DNA from: a virus
Virus genome (UHGV): UHGV-2199876
DNA length: 29,731 bases
Reading direction: 5' to 3' (one strand)
Shown: one piece after another, positions 10,027 to 29,731 of the stretch
Layout: each line of letters opens with the position of its first letter
Numbering within the stretch: the first letter of the stretch is position 1
Position numbers and translations under genes: made by a program
The notes under the pieces: model-generated
Told to the model about the DNA's origin: nothing
What the model saw: the letters and a program-made list of their open reading frames with translations, nothing else
The model's database searches: none

Positions 10027-10256
10027 TCAGCCTCCTTATCGCGCAGCAAGTGCGACGAGAGAGACGCAGAATATCCCTGTGCTTCATGCGTTAACTCACA
10101 CGCAATCTGCAGAAGTTTTCCAGCCTCTGAGAGGTAAATCGACGCCTCACAACTGGAGACTGTCCGATGGGCTGATGATACGAGCGCATAGACCTGAGCC
10201 AGACGTTCATCCAACGATTCCAGCAGGCCAACAGTGTTCATTTTTACCTGATTCAT
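10023..10256 (-). CDS. Small protein translationally coupled to the Bro-N ORF (candidate icd-like leader gene)
   Basis: 77-aa ORF with a GAGGTGG SD 4 nt upstream. Its stop overlaps the start of the Bro-N ORF, the same coupling seen for icd-ant in P1 immI. The icd-like label is by arrangement only. Confidence 0.4.
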   Translation of the reverse strand: MNQVKMNTVGLLESLDERLAQVYALVSSAHRTVSSCEASIYLSEAGKLLQIACELTHEAQGYSASLSSHLLRDKEAE

Positions 10257-10423
10257 GCAGCCACCTCGCGCACCGGAATACGGGCAGACAATACCAGGAC
10301 AAACCGGCTGGCGAACTGGCGACGAGCTTCCCGTTCAGATGACGCGATAGTGGAAAGATGATGAATGTGGGACTTTTTGTCTGTGCGAACGACTGCCGCA
10401 AATTTGAATTTGAACATGGTATG

Positions 10424-10640
10424 CACTCCGTTTTATTGGTCGTGCTACCACCAGAGTTGCGAATCTCTTTATTGGTGGTAGCCCAGGCGGGGTTCGCAAT
10501 ACCGGTAAACGAAGAAACCGGCCCGACCGAAGTCAGCCCCACCTGAGCCACCATAATTCGGATATGCGCAGGTCTATACACACAAAAAAACACGCTGGCG
10601 CGTGTTGTGCGCTTCGTTTTGCCAGGATTGCGAAGTCCCG
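10424..10640 (-). promoter_or_regulatory. Candidate RNA regulatory leader (structured, with mutually complementary heptamers) upstream of the icd-like/Bro-N ORFs
   Basis: About 530 bp with no credible ORF. Perfect 10-bp stem GCTACCACCA...TGGTGGTAGC (10444-10482) with TTGCGAA in its loop; the complementary TTCGCAA at 10495-10501; a second TTGCGAA at 10629-10635. Confidence 0.3.
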
Positions 10641-10797
10641 ACTGCGGGATTTACCGCAGCGAGGTGACTTTACCTCCAAAACGACGCACACGTCAATAAT
10701 TTGCAAAGACATTTTACCCCGTGACCAGTCACGGGGACAGGTGTTTTTATAGTTTGCTTGAACGAGTGATCAGAAGTTGATCGTTAATCAAAGGCCA

Positions 10798-11109
10798 TTA
10801 CGGATTAAGAGAGTGGAAATACCTAACTAACTTACCGGCATCATCACATTTTTCTTTATCTTCTTCCTTAACATAGCCGCGACAGAAGGCTGAATAAAAT
10901 TTCGCATTTTCAGAAGCAAAAGCAGCCGTCGAAAGGAGCAGTTCTTTGCATGATTCTTTTGATGCAGCATCGGGATTATTTTTACATGCAAGCTCCGCTG
11001 ATGAGTTAATAACAGAAATGCTATCTTCCTGGGCATAAACCGCAGCAGAAAAGGCAAAACATAAAACCAAAATAAAACTCTTCACTTTATCTCCTGTAAC
11101 AGTTATCAC
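10798..11109 (-). CDS. Small secreted cysteine-containing protein (103 aa, signal peptide)
   Basis: N-terminal hydrophobic signal (FILVLCFAFSAAVYAQ) and at least 4 Cys in the mature part. SD GGAG upstream. AT-rich relative to its neighbours. Confidence 0.5.
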   Translation of the reverse strand: MITVTGDKVKSFILVLCFAFSAAVYAQEDSISVINSSAELACKNNPDAASKESCKELLLSTAAFASENAKFYSAFCRGYVKEEDKEKCDDAGKLVRYFHSLNP

Positions 11110-11112
11110 AAC

Positions 11113-11520
11113 TCAATCAACTTTTTTAGCATCAGCCATACGCTTCAACCAGTAATCAACAATCGGCTGCTCATCCACAGAATGTTTACCAGGTATAACT
11201 CGCCAGCTATCTTGCGAAAATCTGCCGTACTTACGCGGGAATAGGCCTTTCTTTATCTCCCGCCATGTACTAGGAAAACCATCCACAAAAGTACCAATTA
11301 ACAGGAGAGGGACAAAAATCAGAGCTACAAACCATCGTGCAAGAAAGTGTTCAACAACAACATTTTCACCGTTGTAGTAATACGCATACGCATCCAATAT
11401 GCGAATTTTCCTTACCTTAAAAATAGCCTTATGCTGAGAACGACTTAACTTGATACGAATGTATCCCTTATCCAAAGGGGATTCGTATTTGTATGATTGA
11501 AAAGCCATTTTTAACCCCAC
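11113..11520 (-). CDS. Hypothetical membrane protein (135 aa, one central TM segment)
   Basis: ORF with the hydrophobic segment WFVALIFVPLLLIGTFV. Translationally coupled to its neighbours. Confidence 0.5.
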   Translation of the reverse strand: MGLKMAFQSYKYESPLDKGYIRIKLSRSQHKAIFKVRKIRILDAYAYYYNGENVVVEHFLARWFVALIFVPLLLIGTFVDGFPSTWREIKKGLFPRKYGRFSQDSWRVIPGKHSVDEQPIVDYWLKRMADAKKVD

Positions 11521-11837
11521 TCACCATCAGCAAACAAAGCGTTATACTCTGACAATGGTAGACGGTTGCCCTCGATGTAGAGATTCAGTTCATACTTCGT
11601 CTCCGGGTTTTCCTTGTCGGCTCGTTCCCAACGCTCAGCAGCCTTACGCGCCAATAATTCCACTGCTTTCAGGTAATCCTCCGTACGGAACCAGCCAAAG
11701 ATAAGGCCACGATCTGTTACAGCCCAGGCGACCTTTTTTTCTTCCTCCTGGATAGCCTTAATGCGTCGATCGCATTCATCCCGGCAGAACTGCAGCTGAC
11801 GGTAATCAAGTTTGTCCAAAAATGCAGTAGTAGACAT
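11511..11837 (-). CDS. Hypothetical protein (108 aa)
   Basis: ORF with a GGGGAG SD upstream. Sits in the repA-distal operon. No recognised motif. Confidence 0.5.
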   Translation of the reverse strand: MSTTAFLDKLDYRQLQFCRDECDRRIKAIQEEEKKVAWAVTDRGLIFGWFRTEDYLKAVELLARKAAERWERADKENPETKYELNLYIEGNRLPLSEYNALFADGEWG

Positions 11838-11841
11838 ATTT

Positions 11842-12033
11842 TTACTCCCCGTTCACCGAAAAATCACGATAGAAGCGTTTCCACATACGATAAGTCTGCG
11901 CGAGTTGTTCACCACGAAACATCGCCTTCCTGGCCTTCATGTTTTCCTTGTGAGACTTTCGATCTATGAACCAAAACCATTGCTGGAACACACAAAGCAA
12001 GAGACACAAAGATAATATCCACTGATTACCCAT
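11842..12033 (-). CDS. Small membrane protein (63 aa) translationally coupled to the repA stop
   Basis: The ATG at 12033-12031 overlaps the repA TAA (ATGGGTAA). Sequence MGNQWILSLCLLLCVFQQWFWF... has one TM segment. The ORF track's longer 102-aa version runs back into repA. Confidence 0.35.
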   Translation of the reverse strand: MGNQWILSLCLLLCVFQQWFWFIDRKSHKENMKARKAMFRGEQLAQTYRMWKRFYRDFSVNGE

Positions 12034-15000
12034 AGAAAGCGCCCTGCTCTTCGTAGCTGCATGAGCTATTCCCGGTAATGTATTCTCGTAACCGCCGCAA
12101 TTCATTGCTGGACAAGTGATCCATGAACTCTGTGAGATACAGAGATGCAAACGTCATAGCTATGCTGGCTGATGACCATGATGACATAGTGGCCAGCTCC
12201 TCACCGGAAAGCGCACTCATCGCCCAGGACTCAGGAACAGCCACCGGCAATACGGCCAAAGCCTCAGAAATTACTGAATGAGGGGCGTTTTGAACCTGCT
12301 CGTTTGTGGATCGCGTTTTATCATCCATATATATATTGAGATCCAAATCGCGATCCATTTCGATGGCTGTCTTCTCGGCTTTACGCGTTTTTAGGGTTAG
12401 GCCATCTTTCTGACGCTGAACAAGAATATCCAGCATAAATGCCGCTGATTCAGGCTCAACAAAACGCAAGGTTGGACGCTTATCGCCGTCTCTGCCGCGA
12501 CGTTTACCTGTTTTAAGGCCAAGAGAGTCGCAAATGTTTTTAAACAACGCTTCCGGCACTTTAGGCTTCCCTTTTGGCGTCATAAAACCACCAATGTGCA
12601 GAACGTTATTCAACAGGTCACGGCGTTCGGCTGTCATGAGGTTATCTCGAGCGAATTTGAGACGCTCCTGAGTCGCCTCGCCGGTCATAGTCTCAGGGTT
12701 GATACCGCAGTCGATAAAGTACTGCCGGAGAGTTGCTGATTTAAGCGCATAGAAACCGCGCGCCCCGACTTCAACAGTAGGAGTAGCTTTTACCTTGTAG
12801 TCGATTATTCCAGGGAATTTAGTTTTAAAGACATCATCAGCCTGCTCGCGAGTCATCGCGGTCACTACAAAATATTGCCACTGTCCCGCCTGACGGTATG
12901 CGTAGGTAAAATTGATGGCTGCTTCTTCCCGGTCGTAACGACGAGCTGTTACCTCATCTAAAAGCATTGTTTCATAGCGGCGAACTTTGTCTCGAGCACC
13001 ATCGAAATAGAATTTCAGCGTGCCTTCTTCAACCGGTAGTTTCAGTTCGTTCTCAATATCCCAGCGGACAAGTTTTGCTTGTTCTTCAAGCGTCAGCGCG
13101 CGTTTTTTTAGCAGTTCTTCACGCTCTGATTCTTGTGGAGTTTCTGTATTGAGATGCAGATCCAGTGTCTGTTCCCACACAATATCCCGCGCTTCTTTAC
13201 GCAGATCTTTACCGATATCATTCGCAGCATAATCGGTGGCCAGCGGCGATACCTTATAACCGTCGCTGTGCATGATGCAGATCATGTTGCTGGCGTAGTC
13301 GTTACGCGCAGACGCTTCAATTGCGGCTGCTTTAATTTTCATCCTGGTAAAGTCGGTATTGGCCACCCCCATTGATATACGGTCGCCATCGAAAACGACA
13401 TCCGTCAGTTCACCGTTCATGCCTGCGGTAGCAAGCAATGCCTGGGCGAATGCTCGTTCTATTTTTTGCGGGTCAGTTTCACGTTTTGCGCGAGCTTTAT
13501 CAAAGCCGATAATAAATTCTTTTGCTGTACGGTCGCGGCGTAGCATTTGCACTGCGTCGCTGGGTACAACTTCACCACAGAACATGCCGAAATGACGGTC
13601 AAAATGTTTTTGCTCAATCGACACACCGGATGAAATAGACGGGCTATAAATCAGGCCGTCGTATTTTTTGACCATCTTTTTCGGTTGATTGGTAAATGCT
13701 TCAACTTCTGGCTCTGGTTTGTTTTTCTGGTTTACACACAGAAATTTCTTACCAGGAAAATGCATTCTCAGGGTGGCTGTCACATCTTCTGCAAAGGTGG
13801 AGCTGTCGGTGGCCAACATGATTTTTTCGCCATCCGATACAGCTTTCACCACCTCGGTCATAATGCGATCTTTTTCTGTATAAAAAACCCGGATTGGCTC
13901 ACCTGTTTCGCGGTTGCGAACATCAACAGGTAATTCAATTACGTGGATCTGCAGCCATGCCGGTAAACCTAGTTCTTCACGGCGTTTCATAGCCAGTTCA
14001 GCCAGGTCAACCAGCAGATCGTTCGCATCAGCATCCACCATTATTGGGTGTTGTTCCGTTCTGGCCAGCGCGTCGATTAACGTATTGAATACAGCCACCG
14101 GGTTTTCCATAGCCCGACCGGAAAGAACGGCACGTAGCCCTTGCGTGGCCTCGTCAAAGCCAAAATAGTCGTGCTGGCGCATCAACGGTTGCCAGCAGTT
14201 TTTAACAATCGAGTTTATGCAGATGGTCAGTTTACTGGCGTATGGAGCCATTTCCTGATAGCCAGGGTCCTGATAGTGCAGGATATCGGCTTTTACACCT
14301 TTTCCTTCTGTCATCATTTCCCACAGGCCACCAATAAGGGAAACACGGTGAGCAACAGAGATACCACGTTCTGAGCTATGCATTAAAGGTCGTAACAATC
14401 CAGTAGATTTGCCGGAACCCATACCAGCACGAACGATGACTATCCCCTGTAGTGATTGCACATACTTCAGGACGTCATCGGTCATTACCGAAGTTTCAAA
14501 ACGCTTATAGGTGATATGTTGAGGACGTTTATTGGGATCAGTTATGCGTTCGCTGAATGAGCGCGGAGCCTGGGCAATACGGCACTTTTTATTCAGGCGA
14601 CGGGCAATGTGGTCTTTTACCGTAGCGCGATAGATATTTTCCAGCCCCATTTCACGCAGAACGATGCAGAACATGTTAAATAAGTCTGACGGACTGTTAG
14701 GAACCGGACAGGTTAGCATGCCAATATCCACCGCTCTCAGCAGCTCTTTGGCAAAAGTACGACGGTTATCCCGCTTAATTGTCTTCAGGCGGTTGAGCGT
14801 CAGAGATAGCAAATCAGTGCCGGTTTTCAGGCGGTTTGCAGTTGCAAACAGTTGACGTGCTGTTTCACGAAGTCCACGCAGTTTGTGCAGGTCGTTGAAG
14901 TCACTGCACTCCATTTGCGGATCGTCTTCAAAAGTTGGATAGACGCAGCGGACATCGTTGAATTTCGATAAGATTTCATAGCCAGTCCGCAGGCCGGTAT

Positions 15001-16021
15001 TCCCTTTTCCTTCTGTGGCTGATTTCCGGTCATTATCCAGTGCGCAGGTGATTTTTGCCGCCGGGTACATGTTTACCAGTTGTTCCACAACATGAACCAT
15101 GTTATTAGCGGATACAGCGACAACCACAGCGTCAAAGCGTTTATCTTTTTTCGTGGCAAGCCAGATGGATGCACCAGTAGCAAAACCTTCTGTAACAGCG
15201 ATGTTTTGCGCCCCTTTTAGCTCACCGATAACAAAGCAGGCACCGACGAAATCGCCGCTGGTTACGGCGCTGGTCTGGTATTTTCCACCTTGTTTGTCGA
15301 TTCGCTGCCAACCCACAATACGACCATCGTAACGACCGTCCAGGTGAGCCAGAGGGATAGCCATATACGTGGTTGGCCCCCTGCTCCATTTTGCGCTGTC
15401 GTGACTGGTCACGCGACGCACATCACACGAATTAAAAACGTCACGAATACCTTTTTTAATCGCATATGGCCATGAGCCGTCTTCTGCAGGAGCATGTTCC
15501 CACGCGCTGTGGAATGCCAGCCATCCCAGCAAACGTTCATGGTCCATTTGGTTGTTTTTCAGGTCATTAATTCGTTTTTGTTCTTCACGGCGACGACGTG
15601 CTTCGGCCTGACGTTCTATTCTTGCCCGTTCTTCTTCCGGTTGTGCGACCACGGTCGCATTATTCCGTTGTTGCTCACGGCGATATTCAGAAAACAGGAA
15701 GGAGAAACCGCTCCATGAGCCAGCATCGCTGCCTTTATGGACGAAGTTAATGAACGGGTAATCAATCCCTTTGCTGTGTTCCAGCCGGGAGTAAATTTCT
15801 ACGCGTCCTTTGAGGCTCTTTTCGAGAGCTTCTGGAGATGTTTTATTGTATGAAGAGTAACGCTCAACACCCCCGCGAGGGTTGAGTTGGATGTTGTCGG
15901 AACAGGCAGACCAGTTGATACCAGCCATCTGTGCCAGCTCGGTTAGTTCATCCCGTGCTGCTTCAATTAGCGAGAACGGATCGCTGCCAAAGCGATCCGC
16001 ATAGAAATCGTTTAATGTCAT
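12026..16021 (-). CDS. repA: Replication protein RepA (multidomain primase-helicase, N15 RepA / P4 alpha-like)
   Basis: 1331-aa ORF with Walker A (VRAGMGSGKST) in the central helicase region and a primase-like N-terminal part. Size and position match N15 repA. Confidence 0.9.
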   Translation of the reverse strand: MTLNDFYADRFGSDPFSLIEAARDELTELAQMAGINWSACSDNIQLNPRGGVERYSSYNKTSPEALEKSLKGRVEIYSRLEHSKGIDYPFINFVHKGSDAGSWSGFSFLFSEYRREQQRNNATVVAQPEEERARIERQAEARRRREEQKRINDLKNNQMDHERLLGWLAFHSAWEHAPAEDGSWPYAIKKGIRDVFNSCDVRRVTSHDSAKWSRGPTTYMAIPLAHLDGRYDGRIVGWQRIDKQGGKYQTSAVTSGDFVGACFVIGELKGAQNIAVTEGFATGASIWLATKKDKRFDAVVVAVSANNMVHVVEQLVNMYPAAKITCALDNDRKSATEGKGNTGLRTGYEILSKFNDVRCVYPTFEDDPQMECSDFNDLHKLRGLRETARQLFATANRLKTGTDLLSLTLNRLKTIKRDNRRTFAKELLRAVDIGMLTCPVPNSPSDLFNMFCIVLREMGLENIYRATVKDHIARRLNKKCRIAQAPRSFSERITDPNKRPQHITYKRFETSVMTDDVLKYVQSLQGIVIVRAGMGSGKSTGLLRPLMHSSERGISVAHRVSLIGGLWEMMTEGKGVKADILHYQDPGYQEMAPYASKLTICINSIVKNCWQPLMRQHDYFGFDEATQGLRAVLSGRAMENPVAVFNTLIDALARTEQHPIMVDADANDLLVDLAELAMKRREELGLPAWLQIHVIELPVDVRNRETGEPIRVFYTEKDRIMTEVVKAVSDGEKIMLATDSSTFAEDVTATLRMHFPGKKFLCVNQKNKPEPEVEAFTNQPKKMVKKYDGLIYSPSISSGVSIEQKHFDRHFGMFCGEVVPSDAVQMLRRDRTAKEFIIGFDKARAKRETDPQKIERAFAQALLATAGMNGELTDVVFDGDRISMGVANTDFTRMKIKAAAIEASARNDYASNMICIMHSDGYKVSPLATDYAANDIGKDLRKEARDIVWEQTLDLHLNTETPQESEREELLKKRALTLEEQAKLVRWDIENELKLPVEEGTLKFYFDGARDKVRRYETMLLDEVTARRYDREEAAINFTYAYRQAGQWQYFVVTAMTREQADDVFKTKFPGIIDYKVKATPTVEVGARGFYALKSATLRQYFIDCGINPETMTGEATQERLKFARDNLMTAERRDLLNNVLHIGGFMTPKGKPKVPEALFKNICDSLGLKTGKRRGRDGDKRPTLRFVEPESAAFMLDILVQRQKDGLTLKTRKAEKTAIEMDRDLDLNIYMDDKTRSTNEQVQNAPHSVISEALAVLPVAVPESWAMSALSGEELATMSSWSSASIAMTFASLYLTEFMDHLSSNELRRLREYITGNSSCSYEEQGAFYG
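15644..15659. other. sopC-like centromere site (TGCGACC-AC-GGTCGCA) inside repA
   Basis: 16-bp match to the inverted repeat shared by the four other sites. Same 7-2-7 architecture as F sopC (TGGGACC-AC-GGTCCCA). Confidence 0.55.
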
Positions 16022-16144
16022 TTTTTAGCCATTCCATGCGAATTATGTTTTTTCGGGTTGAAAAAATCCGCAGGAGCAGCCACAATAAACGCATCTTGAA
16101 TTGACGGAATCCGTCGCGTTACTGTGGCTGCTTCCTGAAAAGGA

Positions 16145-16172
16145 CCCGAGTTTGCCGACTCGGGTTTTTTTT
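16145..16172 (+). terminator. Hairpin followed by T8 between cB and repA
   Basis: CCCGAGT-ttgccg-ACTCGGG followed by TTTTTTTT. The plus-strand orientation is the strongest, but both flanking genes are on the minus strand. Confidence 0.4.
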
Positions 16173-16266
16173 CGTCTTTTTTCTGCTGCTGTAACCTGAG
16201 TCAACCCACAGAACATATGCTCTGCATTAAACCAGATTTACAGCAAACAATAAACCCCGTATTAAG

Positions 16267-16863
16267 TCATCTACCCTCAACCATGAATGATTTGATCGTT
16301 CCGACTATTTGGTGAACAAATTCAAGATCGCTTTTCCTGAAGATGGCGCGTTGTGAATTTGTTCCGTCCAGATAGTAATTTTCATCATCAAAACGGGCCA
16401 GGCGCTGGATGGTGATATTTCCTGCAGTATCACGAACCAGAACATCCTCGCCGGGAACCAGTTCCAGCGCAGAATCGACCAGGAGAAAATCGCCTGGCTG
16501 ATAGTTTCCCTGCGCCAGATTGCTGATAGTTAACGCATAAACAGTATTGCGCTGGCTGATGAATGGCAGGAATCGCTCAGTATTTGGAACCTGTCCTGGC
16601 TTCCACTCTTCATCAGGTCCACTTTCAGTTGTGCCAATAACAGGAATGCGATCAGGGTCATATTCTGTCCCATACAGCACCCAATGCACTGGCTTGCGTA
16701 AGCATTTAGCCAGGGCAATACCTATCTCCAGTGACGGCATTACGTCGCCACGTTCTAAGTTTTGGACGCCTGCAATAGAGATATCGACAGCCTCAGCAAC
16801 TTCTCGCAACGTCAGCTTCATCTCTAAACGGCGTGCTTTCAGTCGTTCGCCTCGTGTTTTCAT
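16267..16863 (-). CDS. cB: Prophage repressor CB (cI-like: N-terminal HTH plus C-terminal S24/LexA-like domain)
   Basis: 198-aa ORF with an XRE-type HTH (LTLREVAEAVDISIAGVQNLERG) and a C-terminal region with the character of lambda cI / LexA S24 domains. Divergent from the cro-like gene. Confidence 0.85.
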   Translation of the reverse strand: MKTRGERLKARRLEMKLTLREVAEAVDISIAGVQNLERGDVMPSLEIGIALAKCLRKPVHWVLYGTEYDPDRIPVIGTTESGPDEEWKPGQVPNTERFLPFISQRNTVYALTISNLAQGNYQPGDFLLVDSALELVPGEDVLVRDTAGNITIQRLARFDDENYYLDGTNSQRAIFRKSDLEFVHQIVGTIKSFMVEGR

Positions 16864-16886
16864 AGCTTAATCATAAATGATCTTCT

Positions 16887-16927
16887 TATAGCTGGCTATA
16901 AAATTTATTTATTATAGCTGGCTTTAA
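16887..16927. promoter_or_regulatory. Immunity operators: two copies of TTATAGC-N2-GCTATAA between cB and cro
   Basis: TTATAGCTGGCTATAA at 16887-16902 and the imperfect TTATAGCTGGCTTTAA at 16912-16927. A TATAAT hexamer lies at 16943-16948. Confidence 0.5.
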
Positions 16928-17176
16928 ATGCGATTTATTGCTTATAATAACCGCATGAAACCAGAAGAACTTATTCGCCACTTTGGCAGTGTAGAAAAAG
17001 CAGCGGCTGGGGTAGGTGTAACACCCGGTGCTGTTTACCAATGGTTAACCGCTGGAGAGATTCCTTCATTGCGGCAAAGTGATATTGAAGTTCGTACTGC
17101 TTACAAGCTGAAGAGTGACTTTACAACTCGGCGGGTAAAGCAGTCGATTAAGGAGAGCCGTAAGCGTGGAGCTTGA
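16928..17176 (+). CDS. cro: Cro-like small DNA-binding regulator
   Basis: 82-aa ORF (73 aa if it starts at ATG 16955) divergent from cB. Contains a GVTPGAVYQWL HTH-like segment. Confidence 0.6.
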   Translation: MRFIAYNNRMKPEELIRHFGSVEKAAAGVGVTPGAVYQWLTAGEIPSLRQSDIEVRTAYKLKSDFTTRRVKQSIKESRKRGA

Positions 17177-17876
17177 GTATATACGCAGCTGCGTCTCCAC
17201 GGCATTGGCTGATATTCATTATCGCCAGCGTGGCATCCTAGAGGTCCAGCTTGAGCAGATGCGTCTAGGCAGATCAGGACGCTTTAACAATAAACCAGTC
17301 CGGTCAATCAGTGTAGGTGATGATAACTCATACGAAGTGTCTGTTCCTGCTGAGCCGGTTAGATTCCACCAGGGCAAAACATTTAAACAATCATCAATGT
17401 TGCTCACTGATATTGATTTTCAGAGCGCCAGCTGGCGCAGGGCTATTGGTCAGTTGAATAACGAGGAATCAGCCTGGCTTTATTATTGCTACGGATGCAA
17501 GCCTAACTACAACAATGATGTGATTGTTTGTCAGTGGTTATGGCTTGATTTTCTGGTTGCGCATTCGGGTGGCGGGTTTAAAAAAATGAAGGCCTCCACG
17601 AAAAAAGCCATGAGAAAATTGATTTATTACGCGGCACAGCAGGTTAAGTCAGAACTTACGTGTGCTGAGGCAGTTGATGATAGAGAACAGGACAGGCAGC
17701 TGAGTTTTCTACTGAATATATCTATTGATAGCTGGAGACAAGATTATAAAGAACGCTGGCTTTTAATTAAGTCGCGATGTCTGAGCTTAAATCGAACTGC
17801 ATTATTAAATGCGGCGGAGAAGCGCAGTGAAATCATCAAACGCCATCGGGCAGGAAGTGCCATTCTGCCTTTGTAA
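17166..17876 (+). CDS. Hypothetical protein at the position of the late antiterminator (Q-like?)
   Basis: 236-aa ORF immediately after cro with a GTG start. Cys cluster YYCYGCKPNYNNDVIVCQW. Assignment is by position only. Confidence 0.3.
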   Translation: MELEYIRSCVSTALADIHYRQRGILEVQLEQMRLGRSGRFNNKPVRSISVGDDNSYEVSVPAEPVRFHQGKTFKQSSMLLTDIDFQSASWRRAIGQLNNEESAWLYYCYGCKPNYNNDVIVCQWLWLDFLVAHSGGGFKKMKASTKKAMRKLIYYAAQQVKSELTCAEAVDDREQDRQLSFLLNISIDSWRQDYKERWLLIKSRCLSLNRTALLNAAEKRSEIIKRHRAGSAILPL

Positions 17877-17883
17877 ACAAGTT

Positions 17884-18129
17884 ATGTTCAGGAAACCGTC
17901 GAAGCCGGAATTAAGGTATTCGGGGGTAAGAAATGAATATGTTATCTGGTGTCCAACTTGTGGTTACAGGACACGACCAGATAGTAATAAGCAGTCTGTA
18001 ATTGCCGATTGGTATTTATCAAATCAGCCAGGTAATAAGCATATAGAAAATCTTTGGATTAAGCGTTACTTGGAAATCAGAGAGGGTGCGACCGTGGTCG
18101 CACAAGAAAATGAAAATAACGCCATTTAA
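17884..18129 (+). CDS. Small zinc-finger protein (CPTCG motif; Lar-like?)
   Basis: About 81 aa from ATG 17884 containing WCPTCGYRTRPD. The ORF-track start at 17809 overlaps the upstream gene. Confidence 0.4.
   Translation: MFRKPSKPELRYSGVRNEYVIWCPTCGYRTRPDSNKQSVIADWYLSNQPGNKHIENLWIKRYLEIREGATVVAQENENNAI
18087..18102. other. sopC-like centromere site (TGCGACC-GT-GGTCGCA)
   Basis: Same inverted repeat, at the 3' end of the zinc-finger ORF. Confidence 0.6.
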
Positions 18130-18139
18130 GCAGGGGCCG

Positions 18140-18313
18140 ATGACGCATGATGAAGCAGAGCGTCTTTCAGATACTTATCGGCGGCGTGGTAAGAAAGTTC
18201 TGGTTGTTCGTTCTGATTTTTTAGGTGATGGATATTGCGTTTATGTTCATTTACCTGAATCAGAAAGAACACCAAAACCATCCAGAACATATCAACAGAA
18301 AATTTGGGTATAG
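18140..18313 (+). CDS. Hypothetical small protein (57 aa from ATG 18140)
   Basis: ORF in the early-right operon. The ORF-track start at 18086 lies inside the sopC-like site. Confidence 0.3.
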   Translation: MTHDEAERLSDTYRRRGKKVLVVRSDFLGDGYCVYVHLPESERTPKPSRTYQQKIWV

Positions 18314-18336
18314 ATAAACGTTGAGGAGAATTATTC

Positions 18337-18936
18337 GTGACTAATCAGATTATTTACGACAGGAAACGGTCTGATGTAATGATTGACCTTGAAACAATGG
18401 GTACTAACACATGTGCTCCAATTGTTTCTATCGGGGCAGTGTTTTTTTCTCCAGAAGGTGAGGAATTAGGTCCTACTTTTTATGTGCCAGTGAATCTCAG
18501 AAGCTCGATGTTGAATGGTGGTGTCGCCGATGGTGATACCATTTTATGGTGGTTGAAACAGAGCAAGGAAGCCAGAGCCGCAATTTGTACTAATGATGCC
18601 CTTAATATTAAGGATGCACTTTTTGAATTATCACACTTTATTACTTGCCATGCATGTAATTTAAAAAAATTGAAAGTATGGGGAAATGGAGCAACATTCG
18701 ACAATGTAATTTTACGCGGTGCTTATGAGCGCGTTGGCTTAGCCTGTCCGTGGGAATATTTTAATGATCAGGATGTTCGAACAATCGTTAATCTTGGTCA
18801 GTTTATTGGTTTCAATCCTAAAAAAGATATGCCATTTGATGGTGAACGACACAATGCCCTGGCTGATGCTATTCATCAGGCTAAGTATGTATCCGCAATT
18901 TTCTCCCGTCTTGTAAAAGGGCAAGGAGAATCGTAA
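18337..18936 (+). CDS. DEDDh-family 3'-5' exonuclease
   Basis: Motif I MIDLETMG, motif II VWGNGATFDN, motif III H-NALADA. GTG start with a GAGGAG SD. Confidence 0.7.
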   Translation: MTNQIIYDRKRSDVMIDLETMGTNTCAPIVSIGAVFFSPEGEELGPTFYVPVNLRSSMLNGGVADGDTILWWLKQSKEARAAICTNDALNIKDALFELSHFITCHACNLKKLKVWGNGATFDNVILRGAYERVGLACPWEYFNDQDVRTIVNLGQFIGFNPKKDMPFDGERHNALADAIHQAKYVSAIFSRLVKGQGES

Positions 18937-19355
18937 TGGCAAAGGCTTTTACACCAGAACAGAGGGAAGAACTGAATAAACAAATTGTGGAACTCGTGCG
19001 CCTGAATGGACGAGGAACGGTTAGGCAACTTGCGGATGAAACTGGTATTAGCCGGTGTGCTGTTAGTCGTTTATCAAGAGAGCTTGCTGCCAGTGGTGAT
19101 TTGTATATCTCTGGCTCCGGGATATTTCTGTCTGCACAAGCACGCAAGGACTGGCAAAACGCCCGTAAAAAACTATCAAGAGTAAAGCCGAAGACATCGG
19201 TAGTGGTTGATCCAGACCTTATCTGGTCATTACCTGACGGAGAAATACGTCGTTACGACAGGCGCTTGAACATGATTTGTCACGATTGCCGGAAAAGTGA
19301 AGTTATGCAGCGTGTGCTGGCTTTTTATCAGGGAAATTTACAGGAGGTGGCGTAG
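18936..19355 (+). CDS. Putative HTH DNA-binding protein (139 aa)
   Basis: GTVRQLADETGISRCAVSRLSRELAASGD has HTH character. AAGGAGA SD. Confidence 0.45.
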   Translation: MAKAFTPEQREELNKQIVELVRLNGRGTVRQLADETGISRCAVSRLSRELAASGDLYISGSGIFLSAQARKDWQNARKKLSRVKPKTSVVVDPDLIWSLPDGEIRRYDRRLNMICHDCRKSEVMQRVLAFYQGNLQEVA

Positions 19356-19645
19356 TGAATATCGACACCACGATAACGATCGATACGGCCCTAAATATCG
19401 GTCTGGCACTTCTCGGTTGGTTTTACATCATGTTCAGTGCGGGGAAGTGGGCGGCCTCTGTTTTTCTAAAGCAGTGGGGAAAGCACCGCAAACAGGAAAG
19501 ACGCCAGAAAGTGTTAGAGGCGTTCTATGACGCATTTGAACTTAGCCGCATTGAGCCAGGCACAACAGCCAAGATAGCGACAAAAGGCGACCTGATGATA
19601 GTGATGTTCCGACAGGAGAGAGCAGATAAAGGGGAATCAGCATGA
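19355..19645 (+). CDS. Small membrane protein (96 aa)
   Basis: GTG start with a CAGGAGGTGG SD. TM segment IGLALLGWFYIMFSAG. Confidence 0.45.
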   Translation: MNIDTTITIDTALNIGLALLGWFYIMFSAGKWAASVFLKQWGKHRKQERRQKVLEAFYDAFELSRIEPGTTAKIATKGDLMIVMFRQERADKGESA

Positions 19646-20301
19646 AATTTTCCAAATTTTCTGAGTTGGTGAATCGTATTTTGTCCAACAACCACAGCCA
19701 TCGTCGCGATATGGATGTAACAATCGTTATTCATTCGCCTGGCAGCATTGGTTCAACACCCTCAGTTGAGGTTCAGTCAATTCACGCTGGTTTTGATTGG
19801 GATTCCGGGAAAGTGCTGATTTTCCCAGCACAGCCACTGACCACGCTAACACCAGAACAGATTACTGATATTACTGATAGTGTGCGCAAAGGTCAGTCCT
19901 GGCACGCATATCAGGAATACAAGAAGCATAAAGAGCAGTTGGAAAAATTGTCGATTGAACTGGATGCTGCAAAACAGCGCGTAGCAGAACTGGAAGCCAA
20001 ACCTGTAAGCCAAACTTACAAGTTAACTTTTGAGCAATGGCTGGAACAGCAGCATGACAAAATTGATGTTGATTGTGGATGTGTAAGTACTGAAATGTTT
20101 ATGCACTGGATAAGGGTCGCGTATGAGGCTGGCAACTCTCCGGTAACTCCGGATGGTCATGTTCAGTTTTCTGTTTCACTTCCTGCAGCGTTTGGTGGAG
20201 ATAAATATTTTATTGATGGTGTATTTCAACCTTTGAGATATGAGCGTGATTGTGAAAGGGCGGTTGTGGCCGCTGGCGGTGTAGTTAGTTGGGTTAAGTA
20301 A
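19642..20301 (+). CDS. Hypothetical protein (219 aa)
   Basis: Start overlaps the upstream stop. Central coiled-coil-like stretch. No recognised domain. Confidence 0.5.
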   Translation: MKFSKFSELVNRILSNNHSHRRDMDVTIVIHSPGSIGSTPSVEVQSIHAGFDWDSGKVLIFPAQPLTTLTPEQITDITDSVRKGQSWHAYQEYKKHKEQLEKLSIELDAAKQRVAELEAKPVSQTYKLTFEQWLEQQHDKIDVDCGCVSTEMFMHWIRVAYEAGNSPVTPDGHVQFSVSLPAAFGGDKYFIDGVFQPLRYERDCERAVVAAGGVVSWVK

Positions 20302-20316
20302 TTTTCAGGAGGATTT

Positions 20317-20643
20317 ATGGCGCTGACACCGGCAGAACGGCAAAGGAGACGCAGGGAACGGTTGAAGAAGGAAGGCACATCAAGACGGGACTGGATTCTA
20401 GAACCTGACGAGTTACGTATGTTGGGGGAAATTTGTGTATTGCGTAGACCAGGGCGAGTTCCATATTCGGAGAACGAAGTCATTGGTTTGCTGATCAGGA
20501 AAAACTATAAGGAGCTGCAGAAGCAGCTATCTACTACTTGCCCGCGATGTGGTCAAAAAATGCCTGTTTCAGAATGCATTTTTGATGGCGAAGGGTCATG
20601 CCACCTTACAACCACGAGGCTGAAACTTGCGCTCAAAGTGTGA
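20317..20643 (+). CDS. Hypothetical basic protein with a C-terminal CxxC (108 aa)
   Basis: Arg-rich N-terminus (TPAERQRRRRERLKKEG) and a CPRCG motif. AGGAGG SD. Confidence 0.45.
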   Translation: MALTPAERQRRRRERLKKEGTSRRDWILEPDELRMLGEICVLRRPGRVPYSENEVIGLLIRKNYKELQKQLSTTCPRCGQKMPVSECIFDGEGSCHLTTTRLKLALKV

Positions 20644-20661
20644 CTGGTCACGGAGGGATAA

Positions 20662-20904
20662 ATGGATAAAAAGGCATTGCTTTTTGAAATGATACGAAAA
20701 CGGAGCGAAAAGAGCTTTTCTGATGGTGGTGATGGGTTTGTTTTCGCTTCGATGCTTGCTTTTGATGTTGGGTTAAATAGCAGAATTGTTAAAAGGATGC
20801 TTGATTCTGCTGTCCGTACTGGACTTCTTGAGAAAGTTGATCGTGGCATAGGGAGAGAGCATAAGTATCGGGTCACACAGCAGTTTACGCAGTTAATTCA
20901 TTGA
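20662..20904 (+). CDS. Hypothetical small protein (80 aa), possible DNA-binding
   Basis: ORF with a GGAGGG SD, preceded by a GTGAC-N2-GTCAC palindrome. Confidence 0.4.
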   Translation: MDKKALLFEMIRKRSEKSFSDGGDGFVFASMLAFDVGLNSRIVKRMLDSAVRTGLLEKVDRGIGREHKYRVTQQFTQLIH

Positions 20905-20932: not shown

Positions 20933-20948
20933 CTGTAATTTTATACAG
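20933..20948. promoter_or_regulatory. LexA (SOS) box CTGT-N8-ACAG
   Basis: cCTGTaattttatACAGta fits the CTGT-(AT)4-ACAG consensus. Lies about 40 bp upstream of the 20987 ORF and overlaps likely promoter hexamers. Confidence 0.55.
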
Positions 20949-21232: not shown

Positions 21233-21520
21233 TTAATAAACAGCGCGAATATCGATGGTTGCGCCGCAGGCATGAGCATATTTAGCCAAAGTTTTCATAC
21301 TTGCCCCTAAAGGATTGCTTTCCAGGCGGCTGATGGCTGACGGTCGCAACCCCATTCGTTCAGCCAGAGCTGATTTCGTTAAACCTGCTCTTTCCCTCAT
21401 TTCGTATAACATTTCGACCATCTCCAGCTCTTTATCGGCCTCTTCATATCCTTTGATGGCTTCTGGAGTGTTGAGAAGTTTTTCTTTTACTTCGTTAAAC
21501 GGGATGCCTTTCGCTTTCAT
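21233..21520 (-). CDS. HTH (XRE-family) antitoxin
   Basis: 95-aa ORF with an HTH (LTKSALAERMGLRPSAISRLE). Its start overlaps the stop of the upstream toxin-like ORF (HigB-HigA-type order). Confidence 0.7.
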   Translation of the reverse strand: MKAKGIPFNEVKEKLLNTPEAIKGYEEADKELEMVEMLYEMRERAGLTKSALAERMGLRPSAISRLESNPLGASMKTLAKYAHACGATIDIRAVY

Positions 21521-21831
21521 CAGTTCATCTCCTTCAGGCGAGTTCTGGCGATTTCGATAGCCTTCACCGGTGTTTTCTGTGTCTTTTTTACAAATGCATG
21601 CAATAGATAAATTTCGTTACCAGTCGCGTAGGCGTACAGCGTTCTTGCGATGTTTTTATCCCCTACTCGTAGTTCAAAAAGCCCTCCACCTATTACACGG
21701 CTATGGGGCATCTTCAGTTTGTTGCCTTCCTTCTCCAGTCGCTCAATTAATCTGGTCATGCGACCTCGCAAATCATCTGGTAGTTCAAGCAGTTCATCCA
21801 GTGCTGCAGGGTGGGTTATCACGTTAAACAT
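21520..21831 (-). CDS. Gp49-like (HigB/RelE-superfamily) toxin
   Basis: 103 aa with the 'phage-derived Gp49-like' character (KMPHSRVIGGGLFELRVGD...ARTLYAY...IYLLHAFVKKTQKTP). The family is named after N15 gene 49. Confidence 0.7.
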   Translation of the reverse strand: MFNVITHPAALDELLELPDDLRGRMTRLIERLEKEGNKLKMPHSRVIGGGLFELRVGDKNIARTLYAYATGNEIYLLHAFVKKTQKTPVKAIEIARTRLKEMN

Positions 21832-22459: not shown

Positions 22460-22465
22460 AAACTG

Positions 22466-22481
22466 TGCGACCACGGTCGCA
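22466..22481. other. sopC-like centromere site (TGCGACC-AC-GGTCGCA)
   Basis: Inverted repeat immediately after the stop of the 22232 ORF. Confidence 0.6.
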
Positions 22482-22556
22482 CAGCACAAAAACGAAAAAG
22501 CTTGGCAAAATTACGGTTTTTAGTTATTGTTTTGTTAAGTTGGGTTTTTTGTACCC

Positions 22557-25485: not shown

Positions 25486-25505
25486 AAATCTCTTTGTTTC
25501 TCGTG

Positions 25506-25521
25506 TGCGACCGTGGTCGCA
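25506..25521. other. sopC-like centromere site (TGCGACC-GT-GGTCGCA)
   Basis: Inverted repeat 20 bp after the DUF4406-like stop and just before direct-repeat copy 1. Confidence 0.6.
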
Positions 25522-25532
25522 CATTAAATACC

Positions 25533-25700: not shown

Positions 25701-25725
25701 GAAACAGGGCATGTATTCAGGAGCG

Positions 25726-25741
25726 TGCGACCGTGGTCGCA
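25726..25741. other. sopC-like centromere site (TGCGACC-GT-GGTCGCA)
   Basis: Inverted repeat about 25 bp upstream of the ATG of the 25765 ORF. Confidence 0.6.
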
Positions 25742-25764
25742 CGGTATCTTTGTCAGGAGGTTTT

Positions 25765-27459: not shown

Positions 27460-29731
<2,272 letters not shown>

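Follow-up and report, generated by a model that had tools for sequence, protein, structure and literature searches.

Conserved 12-bp dyads of an N15-like phage-plasmid and the gp46-family protein proposed to bind them

Introduction

The window considered here is the whole analysed stretch of 29,731 nucleotides of the virus genome UHGV-2199876. It shares 99.9% identity with the Escherichia phage PhiR46_1, which is a linear phage-plasmid of the N15 type, and contains sopBA, telN, repA, cB, cro and Q in the N15 order. A 12-bp inverted repeat, GTGAC-N2-GTCAC (the dyad), occurs in it three times: once between genes, once inside repA and once across the stop codon of a gene homologous to N15 gp46. 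The dyads are real, conserved DNA sites, and they co-occur with a protein family of predicted ribbon-helix-helix (RHH) fold. Judged from sequence comparison, they are probably the operators of the protein encoded at 20317-20643 (here called gp46), which would act as a site-specific transcriptional regulator or roadblock.

Three dyad sites in the window

Exactly three perfect matches to GTGACNNGTCAC are present in the window, starting at 10721, 15401 and 20640 (sites 1, 2 and 3, Table 1). In 100 dinucleotide-preserving shuffles the mean is 0.02 and three copies are never reached. The whole 46-kb genome of PhiR46_1 holds the same three copies and no others. When one mismatch is allowed, the sole extra copy is found at 28397, and it is not kept in relatives. 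An earlier, sequence-only reading of this DNA had reported GTGAC-N2-GTCAC three times and far above chance, which the shuffles bear out. Its middle coordinate (15397) was 3-4 bases too low, while the other two were right. A chance origin of the three dyads is ruled out by the shuffles together with the conservation described below. A lone GTGAC-N1-GTCAC, with a spacer of 1 bp, can be observed in the tail-gene region of PhiR46_1 (L001, 29591) and of YDC107_1 (L004, 7562). This copy is missing from N15 and is probably a chance match.

The three sites differ in their surroundings. Site 1 lies upstream of the promoter for the icd/ant leader (minus strand), 24 bp away from its -35 element, and the predicted start of this promoter (~10660) coincides with the 5' end of an isrK-like Rfam match. 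A small open reading frame (ORF) that starts at an ATG after site 1 is, by inspection, not conserved. Site 2 comprises codons 204-207 of repA (VTSH, read on the minus strand as GTG ACC AGT CAC). It lies 245 bp from the nearest sopC-like site, and both are located within repA. Site 3 is followed directly by the Shine-Dalgarno (SD) sequence GGAGG of ORF 20662, the ATG of which stands 10 nt past the site. The contexts given in the sequence-only reading, namely upstream of the leader, in repA near another repeat and before the 80-aa ORF at 20662, are the same as those found here.

Conservation in N15-type relatives

The complete N15 genome also contains exactly three dyads (28550, 33237 and 39269), at the same positions as in PhiR46_1. 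phiKO2 and Klebsiella phage 48ST307 (~75% DNA identity) also have exactly three copies, all of them syntenic, and in YDC107_1 the three sites are likewise kept in synteny. Each of 45 N15-like loci from IMG/VR has the dyad at every site covered by the DNA that was retrieved, and the inter-site distances vary with the mosaic gene content. A genome-wide count and a look at relatives had been proposed in the earlier reading as checks on the motif: PhiR46_1, N15, phiKO2 and 48ST307 agree in their count, and the three positions are kept in every N15/phiKO2-type genome examined. In the Yersinia telomere phages PY54 and P840 no dyad is found anywhere in the genome.

In several public N15-like records the telN-repA arm is duplicated head-to-head (inverted), namely in CP025712.1 YDC107_1 (L004) and in the IMG/VR pairs L013/L037, L019/L032 and L040/L051. 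This duplication resembles assembly through a hairpin telomere or a captured replicative dimer, and it raises the motif counts in these records.

Across the N15-like loci the arms of the dyad are invariant, the centre is TG/CA with few GG/CC variants (occasionally seen at site 1), and the flanks drift. The gap between site 1 and the TTGACG hexamer is 24 bp in all 24 distinct contexts, with varying bases in between, and the -35 of the leader promoter is kept in all N15-like contexts. In the window, a CCCC...GGGG extension makes site 1 the core of a larger 9+9 palindrome, CCCCGTGAC..GTCACGGGG (10713-10740). This extended palindrome is missing from N15 and phiKO2. As it is not kept, selection acts on the 12-mer core. 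On the plus strand the long palindrome is followed by a T-run after 7 nt, and it may represent a lineage-specific terminator laid over the site.

For site 2 the coding sequence offers an internal control. The four codons of the site are monomorphic across 30 haplotypes, whereas synonymous variants occur at 50 of the 60 comparable flanking codons (83%), that is, of those with an invariant degenerate amino acid (rough P ~8e-4). Ascertainment loss does not affect this comparison, because no locus without site 2 was found. In PY54 RepA the corresponding segment displays an indel, different residues and no dyad. The synonymous invariance and the differing RepA of PY54 rule out that site 2 is a mere by-product of RepA coding. 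On the evidence of these alignments, the dyad sites are under selection at the DNA level.

Co-occurrence of the dyad with the gp46 family

The dyad is not confined to the N15 group. The podovirus epsilon15 contains exactly three copies of GTGACATGTCAC, one of which overlaps with the stop codon (TGA) of the gp46 homologue, gp49. The Pectobacterium myovirus ZF40 has three dyads, one starting 3 nt past the stop of the homologue, and Pantoea phage AH07 has two, one of them on the homologue's stop codon. Three dyads are also found in the Vibrio siphovirus K303, in which a gp46 homologue is present. When the 552 ORF segments of PhiR46_1 are compared with these four unrelated dyad-bearing phages (epsilon15, ZF40, AH07 and K303), gp46 is the sole one with homologues in all of them. 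In lambda, P22, HK97, P2, Mu, PY54 and P840 (294 kb; temperate phages of the same hosts) neither a gp46 homologue nor a dyad is found.

The association was followed through 126 viral loci, gathered with the ZF40, K303 and epsilon15 proteins as queries. At least one dyad is located within 10 kb in 125 of them, and in 100 of the 126 a dyad starts at -1 of the gp46-family stop codon. After dereplication (30 loci, 552 kb), GTGAC-N2-GTCAC is present in 57 copies and in 30/30 loci, compared to an average of 0.59 copies over all 5-N2-5 dyads and 14 copies of the runner-up. The spacer is 2 bp in 57/57 sites; other spacers (0-7) occur in 0-2 copies. The TGA of the dyad serves as stop codon at 23 of these 57 sites. 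It ends other genes too, such as epsilon15 gp18 (L054, 19517-19528), and does so at 8/42 non-own sites in the loci L058-L183. The stop codons of other genes within dyads suggest a general preference for a site at the exact end of a coding region.

The family extends to conjugative plasmids. In IncN plasmids a gp46-family protein is encoded directly after stbABC, in ~650 PLSDB records by tblastn. In the IncN plasmid NZ_CP128967.1 (L190) the coding sequence of the homologue spans 33692-34036, and sites of the form cGTGAC-A-GTCACg are found at 33668, 33770 and 40390. These sites, with a 1-bp spacer, lie 13 nt before the ATG of the homologue, inside its gene, and between ardB and ardR, respectively. 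The IncN protein is a candidate for an undescribed regulator of the IncN leading/stability region.

The gp46-family protein

The ORF at 20317-20643 matches phrog_536 with E=4.7e-32 (residues 2-107 on profile positions 3-114 of 115). This family includes N15 gp46 and epsilon15 gp49. It is labelled 'transcriptional regulator', a label for which no experimental basis was found, and the source databases name its members 'hypothetical'. Homologues detected by tblastn are distributed over unrelated temperate phages with 30-40% identity. The AlphaFold model (pLDDT 90) displays an RHH (beta-alpha-alpha) core followed by a C-terminal zinc ribbon. The protein consists of a basic N-terminal helix, the RHH core and the Cys-rich zinc ribbon, in which a CxxC...C...C(W) pattern is conserved. 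Searches of gp46 against Pfam and NCBIfam returned no family at E<=0.01, and five homologues searched against Pfam gave nothing RHH-related even at E<=10. The protein therefore belongs to the RHH fold class by predicted structure, not by a curated sequence family.

The strand residues predicted to face the DNA were compared with the sites. A beta-strand of the RK(L/I)E type is accompanied by an AT dyad centre. The N15-type strand (SRRDWIL) and, independently, that of L088 (RRIDLPL) go together with a CA/TG centre, and the Vibrio type (QE(L/V)RLK) with GC, CC or AC. The IncN homologue, with the strand SVTVTLT, is associated with the 1-bp spacer (A). The GTGAC/GTCAC arms are thus family-wide, while the centre and the spacer are subfamily-specific, as is expected if the gp46-family protein itself reads the site.

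Genomic surroundings of the sites

The features around the three sites are collected in Table 1. The isrK-like RNA, of an Hfq-binding kind, stands in tandem with the C4 antisense RNA, so that P1-type antisense control and a Gifsy-1-type isrK element are combined in an N15-like phage. The 67-aa ORF behind the LexA box is presumably the SOS-controlled antirepressor of the phage. The five sopC-like dyads have the form GTGCGACC-(AC/GT)-GGTCGCA(C/T) and are located in repA, in the region behind Q, ahead of the methylase gene and farther to the right. In form they equal the four repeats that the phiKO2 annotation calls 'putative plasmid partitioning sites'. A Gp49/HigB-type toxin (21520-21831) and an HTH_3 antitoxin (21233-21520) are encoded on the minus strand, convergent with the early-right operon, and the pair is homologous to N15 genes 48/49.

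Table 1. Dyad sites and surrounding features, with positions in the window
Feature	Position	Strand	Remarks
Dyad site 1	10721-10732		Reads GTGACCAGTCAC on the plus strand; between genes, downstream of the repA-gp33 block of leftward genes
Dyad site 2	15401-15412		Reads GTGACTGGTCAC on the plus strand; inside repA
Dyad site 3	20640-20651		GTGACTGGTCAC; TGA at 20641-20643 is the gp46-family gene stop
gp46-family gene, proposed binder	20317-20643	+	108 aa; N15 gp46 homologue; stop inside site 3
Sigma-70-like promoter, immA-like leader	10667-10696	-	TTGACG-18-TAAAGT; consensus match only
Leader RNAs	10471-10660	-	Rfam; downstream of site 1, ahead of icd/Ash-like and ant ORFs
isrK-like RNA	10660-10585	-	RF01394, 52.8 bits, above Rfam gathering threshold
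C4 antisense RNA	10558-10471	-	RF01695, 82.3 bits, above Rfam gathering threshold
Ash-family ORF	10207-10593		
repA	12026-16021	-	1331 aa, primase/replicase; site 2 at +610 from its start
gp47-like ORF	20662-20904	+	80 aa, winged-helix-like; phrog_13995
LexA box	20933-20948		CTGTAATTTTATACAG, perfect
67-aa ORF	20987-21190		Matches antirepressor PHROG; behind LexA box, ~290 bp downstream of site 3
sopC-like 18-bp centromere dyads (n=5)	15643-15660, 18086-18103, 22465-22482, 25505-25522, 25725-25742		

Proposed mechanism

The sequence-only reading had taken the dyad to be the binding site of some regulator. Its conservation and the DNA-level selection support this, and the gp46-family protein would be the regulator in question. 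In the proposed mechanism a gp46 dimer would lay a two-stranded beta-ribbon into the major groove over the dyad centre, while the basic helices at the N-terminus would extend to the outer GTG/CAC bases. The covariation of the beta-strand residues with the central dinucleotide and the spacer of the dyad supports this mode indirectly. The gp46 gene is placed in the early-right operon downstream of Q, and gp46 would therefore be expected after derepression or infection. Once bound, it would most likely regulate transcription at its sites, or act as a roadblock to it, at the boundaries of transcription units. At site 1 it would modulate the icd/antirepressor leader promoter or shield it from transcription that reads through from the repA operon. 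From site 2 it would hinder the transcription of repA, and from site 3 it would restrict expression of gp47 and of the LexA-controlled antirepressor region that follows. The gp47-like ORF 20662 is a likely target of this regulation rather than the binder, because its SD abuts site 3. The position of a site in the gene's own stop codon would keep gene and site together during mosaic recombination. From the comparisons above we infer physical binding and its mode, when gp46 is expressed, and which targets are regulated in which direction.

The placement of the sites agrees with this proposal. They favour gene boundaries: 42% lie inside long ORFs, compared to 80% of random positions (P=3e-10). 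Sites are found a few bases upstream of the ribosome-binding site of N15 gp47, of the IncN family gene itself, of K303 terS and of AH07 xis, and all three epsilon15 sites adjoin intrinsic terminators. The boundary placement, the proximity to ribosome-binding sites and terminators and the fixed 24-bp gap at site 1 therefore favour a regulator or roadblock at unit boundaries.

Alternative explanations

No promoter-like motif adjoins sites 2 and 3, which leaves room for an architectural, MatP-like role. In this rather unlikely case gp46 would still bind the dyads, and it would bridge or loop the sites, tether the replicon to a host structure or block replication forks, as proposed for MatP/matS. 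The low number of dispersed sites (only 2-3 per replicon, several inside genes) and the lack of a promoter at sites 2 and 3 would suit such a role. The structural matches to gp46 include MatP (70 aligned residues), another RHH protein whose sites have GTGAC arms, and the extra C-terminal zinc-ribbon/helix module of the model could mediate higher-order contacts. However, the IncN site just before the gene's own ATG is arranged as in an autoregulated repressor. The sites recur just upstream of ribosome-binding sites and at a fixed promoter distance, no sign of gp46 oligomerisation was seen, and even the site-to-site bridging of MatP has been reported to be infrequent (PMC7394560).

A broader form of this idea, which must be called improbable, would regard the gp46 family and its dyads as an unrecognised, self-contained mobile module that acts by MatP-like bridging rather than classical repression. 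The module, with its 2-3 dispersed sites, one of them fixed in the stop codon of the gene, would move between enterobacterial/vibrio temperate phages and conjugative plasmids. As its arms are exactly those of matS, it may derive from, or interfere with, the host MatP/Ter-macrodomain system. Possible roles would be the organisation or positioning of the phage replicon and the insulation of its transcription units.

The Enterobacterales and Vibrio orders possess MatP, and the named hosts of the gp46 family in the tblastn summaries are mostly Enterobacterales and Vibrio. A host protein with GTGAC-arm recognition (MatP or SlmA) might bind the dyads, with gp46 as bystander or modulator, and the phage-plasmid would exploit the host chromosome organisation through them. 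The identity of the arms with those of matS, GTGAC[AG]N[TC]GTCAC (PMC3603311, PMC3116907), would fit. Against this very unlikely explanation stand the uniform 2-bp spacer and the count of zero 13-bp matS-type sites in the 552 kb of dereplicated loci, as well as the 1-bp spacer of the IncN relatives. Seven gp46-less phages of the same hosts, the Yersinia telomere phages included, are without the dyad, the dyad centre co-varies with the beta-strand of the phage protein, and prophages are reported to avoid matS (PMC3603311). A host SlmA site is argued against in the same manner, because the dyad co-occurs with gp46 and is missing from gp46-less phages of the same hosts.

There is equally little to recommend another phage protein as the binder, be it the gp47-like ORF 20662 or the DUF977 ORF 18936, with the end of the gp46 gene as an incidental location. 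Site 3 directly precedes ORF 20662, which encodes a small winged-helix-like protein, and the earlier reading had proposed 18936, 20662, CB and Cro as candidates. It missed the best one, ORF 20317-20643. Homologues of gp47 are confined to telomere phages and are missing from the dyad-bearing epsilon15, ZF40, AH07 and K303, whereas PY54 has a gp47 homologue (40% identical) without having the dyad; ORF 20662 is disfavoured on these grounds. Nor does the distribution of the dyad follow that of the listed homologues of ORF 18936, CB and Cro, and only gp46 is common to all four unrelated dyad-bearing phages. In the same way gp47, DUF977, gp50, gp51 and the toxin/antitoxin antitoxin were rejected as binders, none of them tracking the dyad outside telomere phages.

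The least credible alternative is an RNA-level element (the repeat would act in transcripts as a hairpin, a terminator or a seed for pairing instead of as a protein-binding DNA site): site 1 does form a stable hairpin (z = -3.0 in the window, -2.6 in phiKO2), the three epsilon15 sites are all beside intrinsic terminators and GUGACUGGUCAC is self-complementary when G-U pairs are allowed, but sites 2 and 3 display no structure beyond shuffled controls (z about 0), site 1 of N15 has z = -0.9, conservation at site 1 covers the 12-mer and not the longer stem, the 12-mer alone yields a 4-bp stem only, the orientation relative to transcription differs from site to site, and the co-occurrence with an RHH protein and the beta-strand covariation would be left unexplained. 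That site 1 alone gives a better fold than its shuffled controls makes a role at the RNA level unlikely. An intrinsic terminator or structured RNA was likewise rejected, as the terminator scan reports none at the window sites and folding is limited to site 1.

Significance

The dyad sites are not annotated in the N15 or phiKO2 records. In the literature searched no relevant mention was found of the motif (GTGACTGGTCAC, GTGACATGTCAC, GTGACAGTCAC) or of a function of N15 gp46/epsilon15 gp49, although an earlier mention in the subscription papers on N15 and phiKO2 is possible. N15 serves as the model of linear phage-plasmids, and linear cloning vectors in wide use derive from it. The putative three-site regulon touches its replication gene and lies near both antirepressor loci. 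The pair of protein and site is found in hundreds of prophages (Salmonella, E. coli, Klebsiella, Pectobacterium, Vibrio) and in IncN resistance plasmids. If true, the operator reading would provide a function for a large family of 'hypothetical' proteins and a new operator for genome annotation, recognisable from nothing but its sequence. The matS-identical arms raise the question of cross-talk with the organisation of the host chromosome.

Comparison with known systems

The sopC sites of the SopB/sopC system resemble the dyads as short perfect repeats with a 2-bp centre that are scattered over the same replicon. They are, however, 18 bp long and of another sequence, GTGCGACC-AC-GGTCGCAC (annotated in phiKO2 as GTGCGACC-NN-GGTCGCAC). 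Moreover, the GTGAC dyad is also present in integrating phages without a Sop system (epsilon15, ZF40, AH07), while PY54 lacks the GTGAC dyad but carries eight sites of the sopC-like kind. The CB operators annotated in N15 (34056-34094 and 34729-34793) do not coincide with the N15 dyads. As the sequence-only reading had held, the dyad is distinct from the sopC-like repeat, the LexA box and the CB operators. All three were rejected as its identity, since either the sequences or the positions differ.

SlmA, a TetR-family protein, binds a 12-bp palindrome of the GTGAGTACTCAC type. The length of 12 bp and the outer GTGA/TCAC agree with the dyad, whereas the inner four bases differ (CTGG vs GTAC). 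The outer 4 bp of the SlmA site equal those of matS (PMC3116907).

A weak resemblance to the DksA/TraR C4 zinc finger is found in the C-terminal half of the family. Its C-terminal 60 residues align weakly to F-plasmid TraR and YbiI (E 0.014-0.026), over a helix and the CxxC...C zinc module; the reference module is CxxC-x17-CxxC after a long helix. This relationship is a weak sequence hint, which the folds do not support.

In the MatP/matS system the sites have the same arms as the dyads, and MatP is also an RHH protein. The matS consensus, however, is 13 bp long, GTGAC-[AG]N[TC]-GTCAC (PMC3603311, PMC3116907), with a 3-bp RNY spacer, in contrast to 12 bp for the dyads and 11 bp in IncN. MatP contains a four-helix bundle and a coiled coil, both missing from gp46, which has a zinc ribbon instead. 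A comparison of the gp46-family profile with verified E. coli MatP gave no detectable homology (hhalign probability 0.2%), and no ORF near the dyads matches the MatP Pfam family. The two systems also differ in location, as MatP/matS operates in the chromosomal Ter macrodomain and the dyads are found on a linear phage-plasmid, other phages and plasmids. The identity of the dyads with matS/MatP was rejected on account of the spacer and the lack of detectable homology with MatP.

The second group to be compared are the RHH repressors, such as P22 Arc, Mnt, the CopG/RepB-type copy-number regulators, the TacA/ParD antitoxins and AmrZ. The gp46 protein differs from them in having no Pfam RHH match, and its family has the conserved C-terminal CxxC...C...C(W) zinc ribbon. 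In the phages the site linked to gp46 is located at the 3' end of the gene (at the stop codon) and not in the promoter, and the other sites are kilobases away and often inside genes. The pair of gp46 and dyad thus works somewhat like MatP/matS or like the repressors of the Arc/Mnt/CopG type, and is a member of neither.

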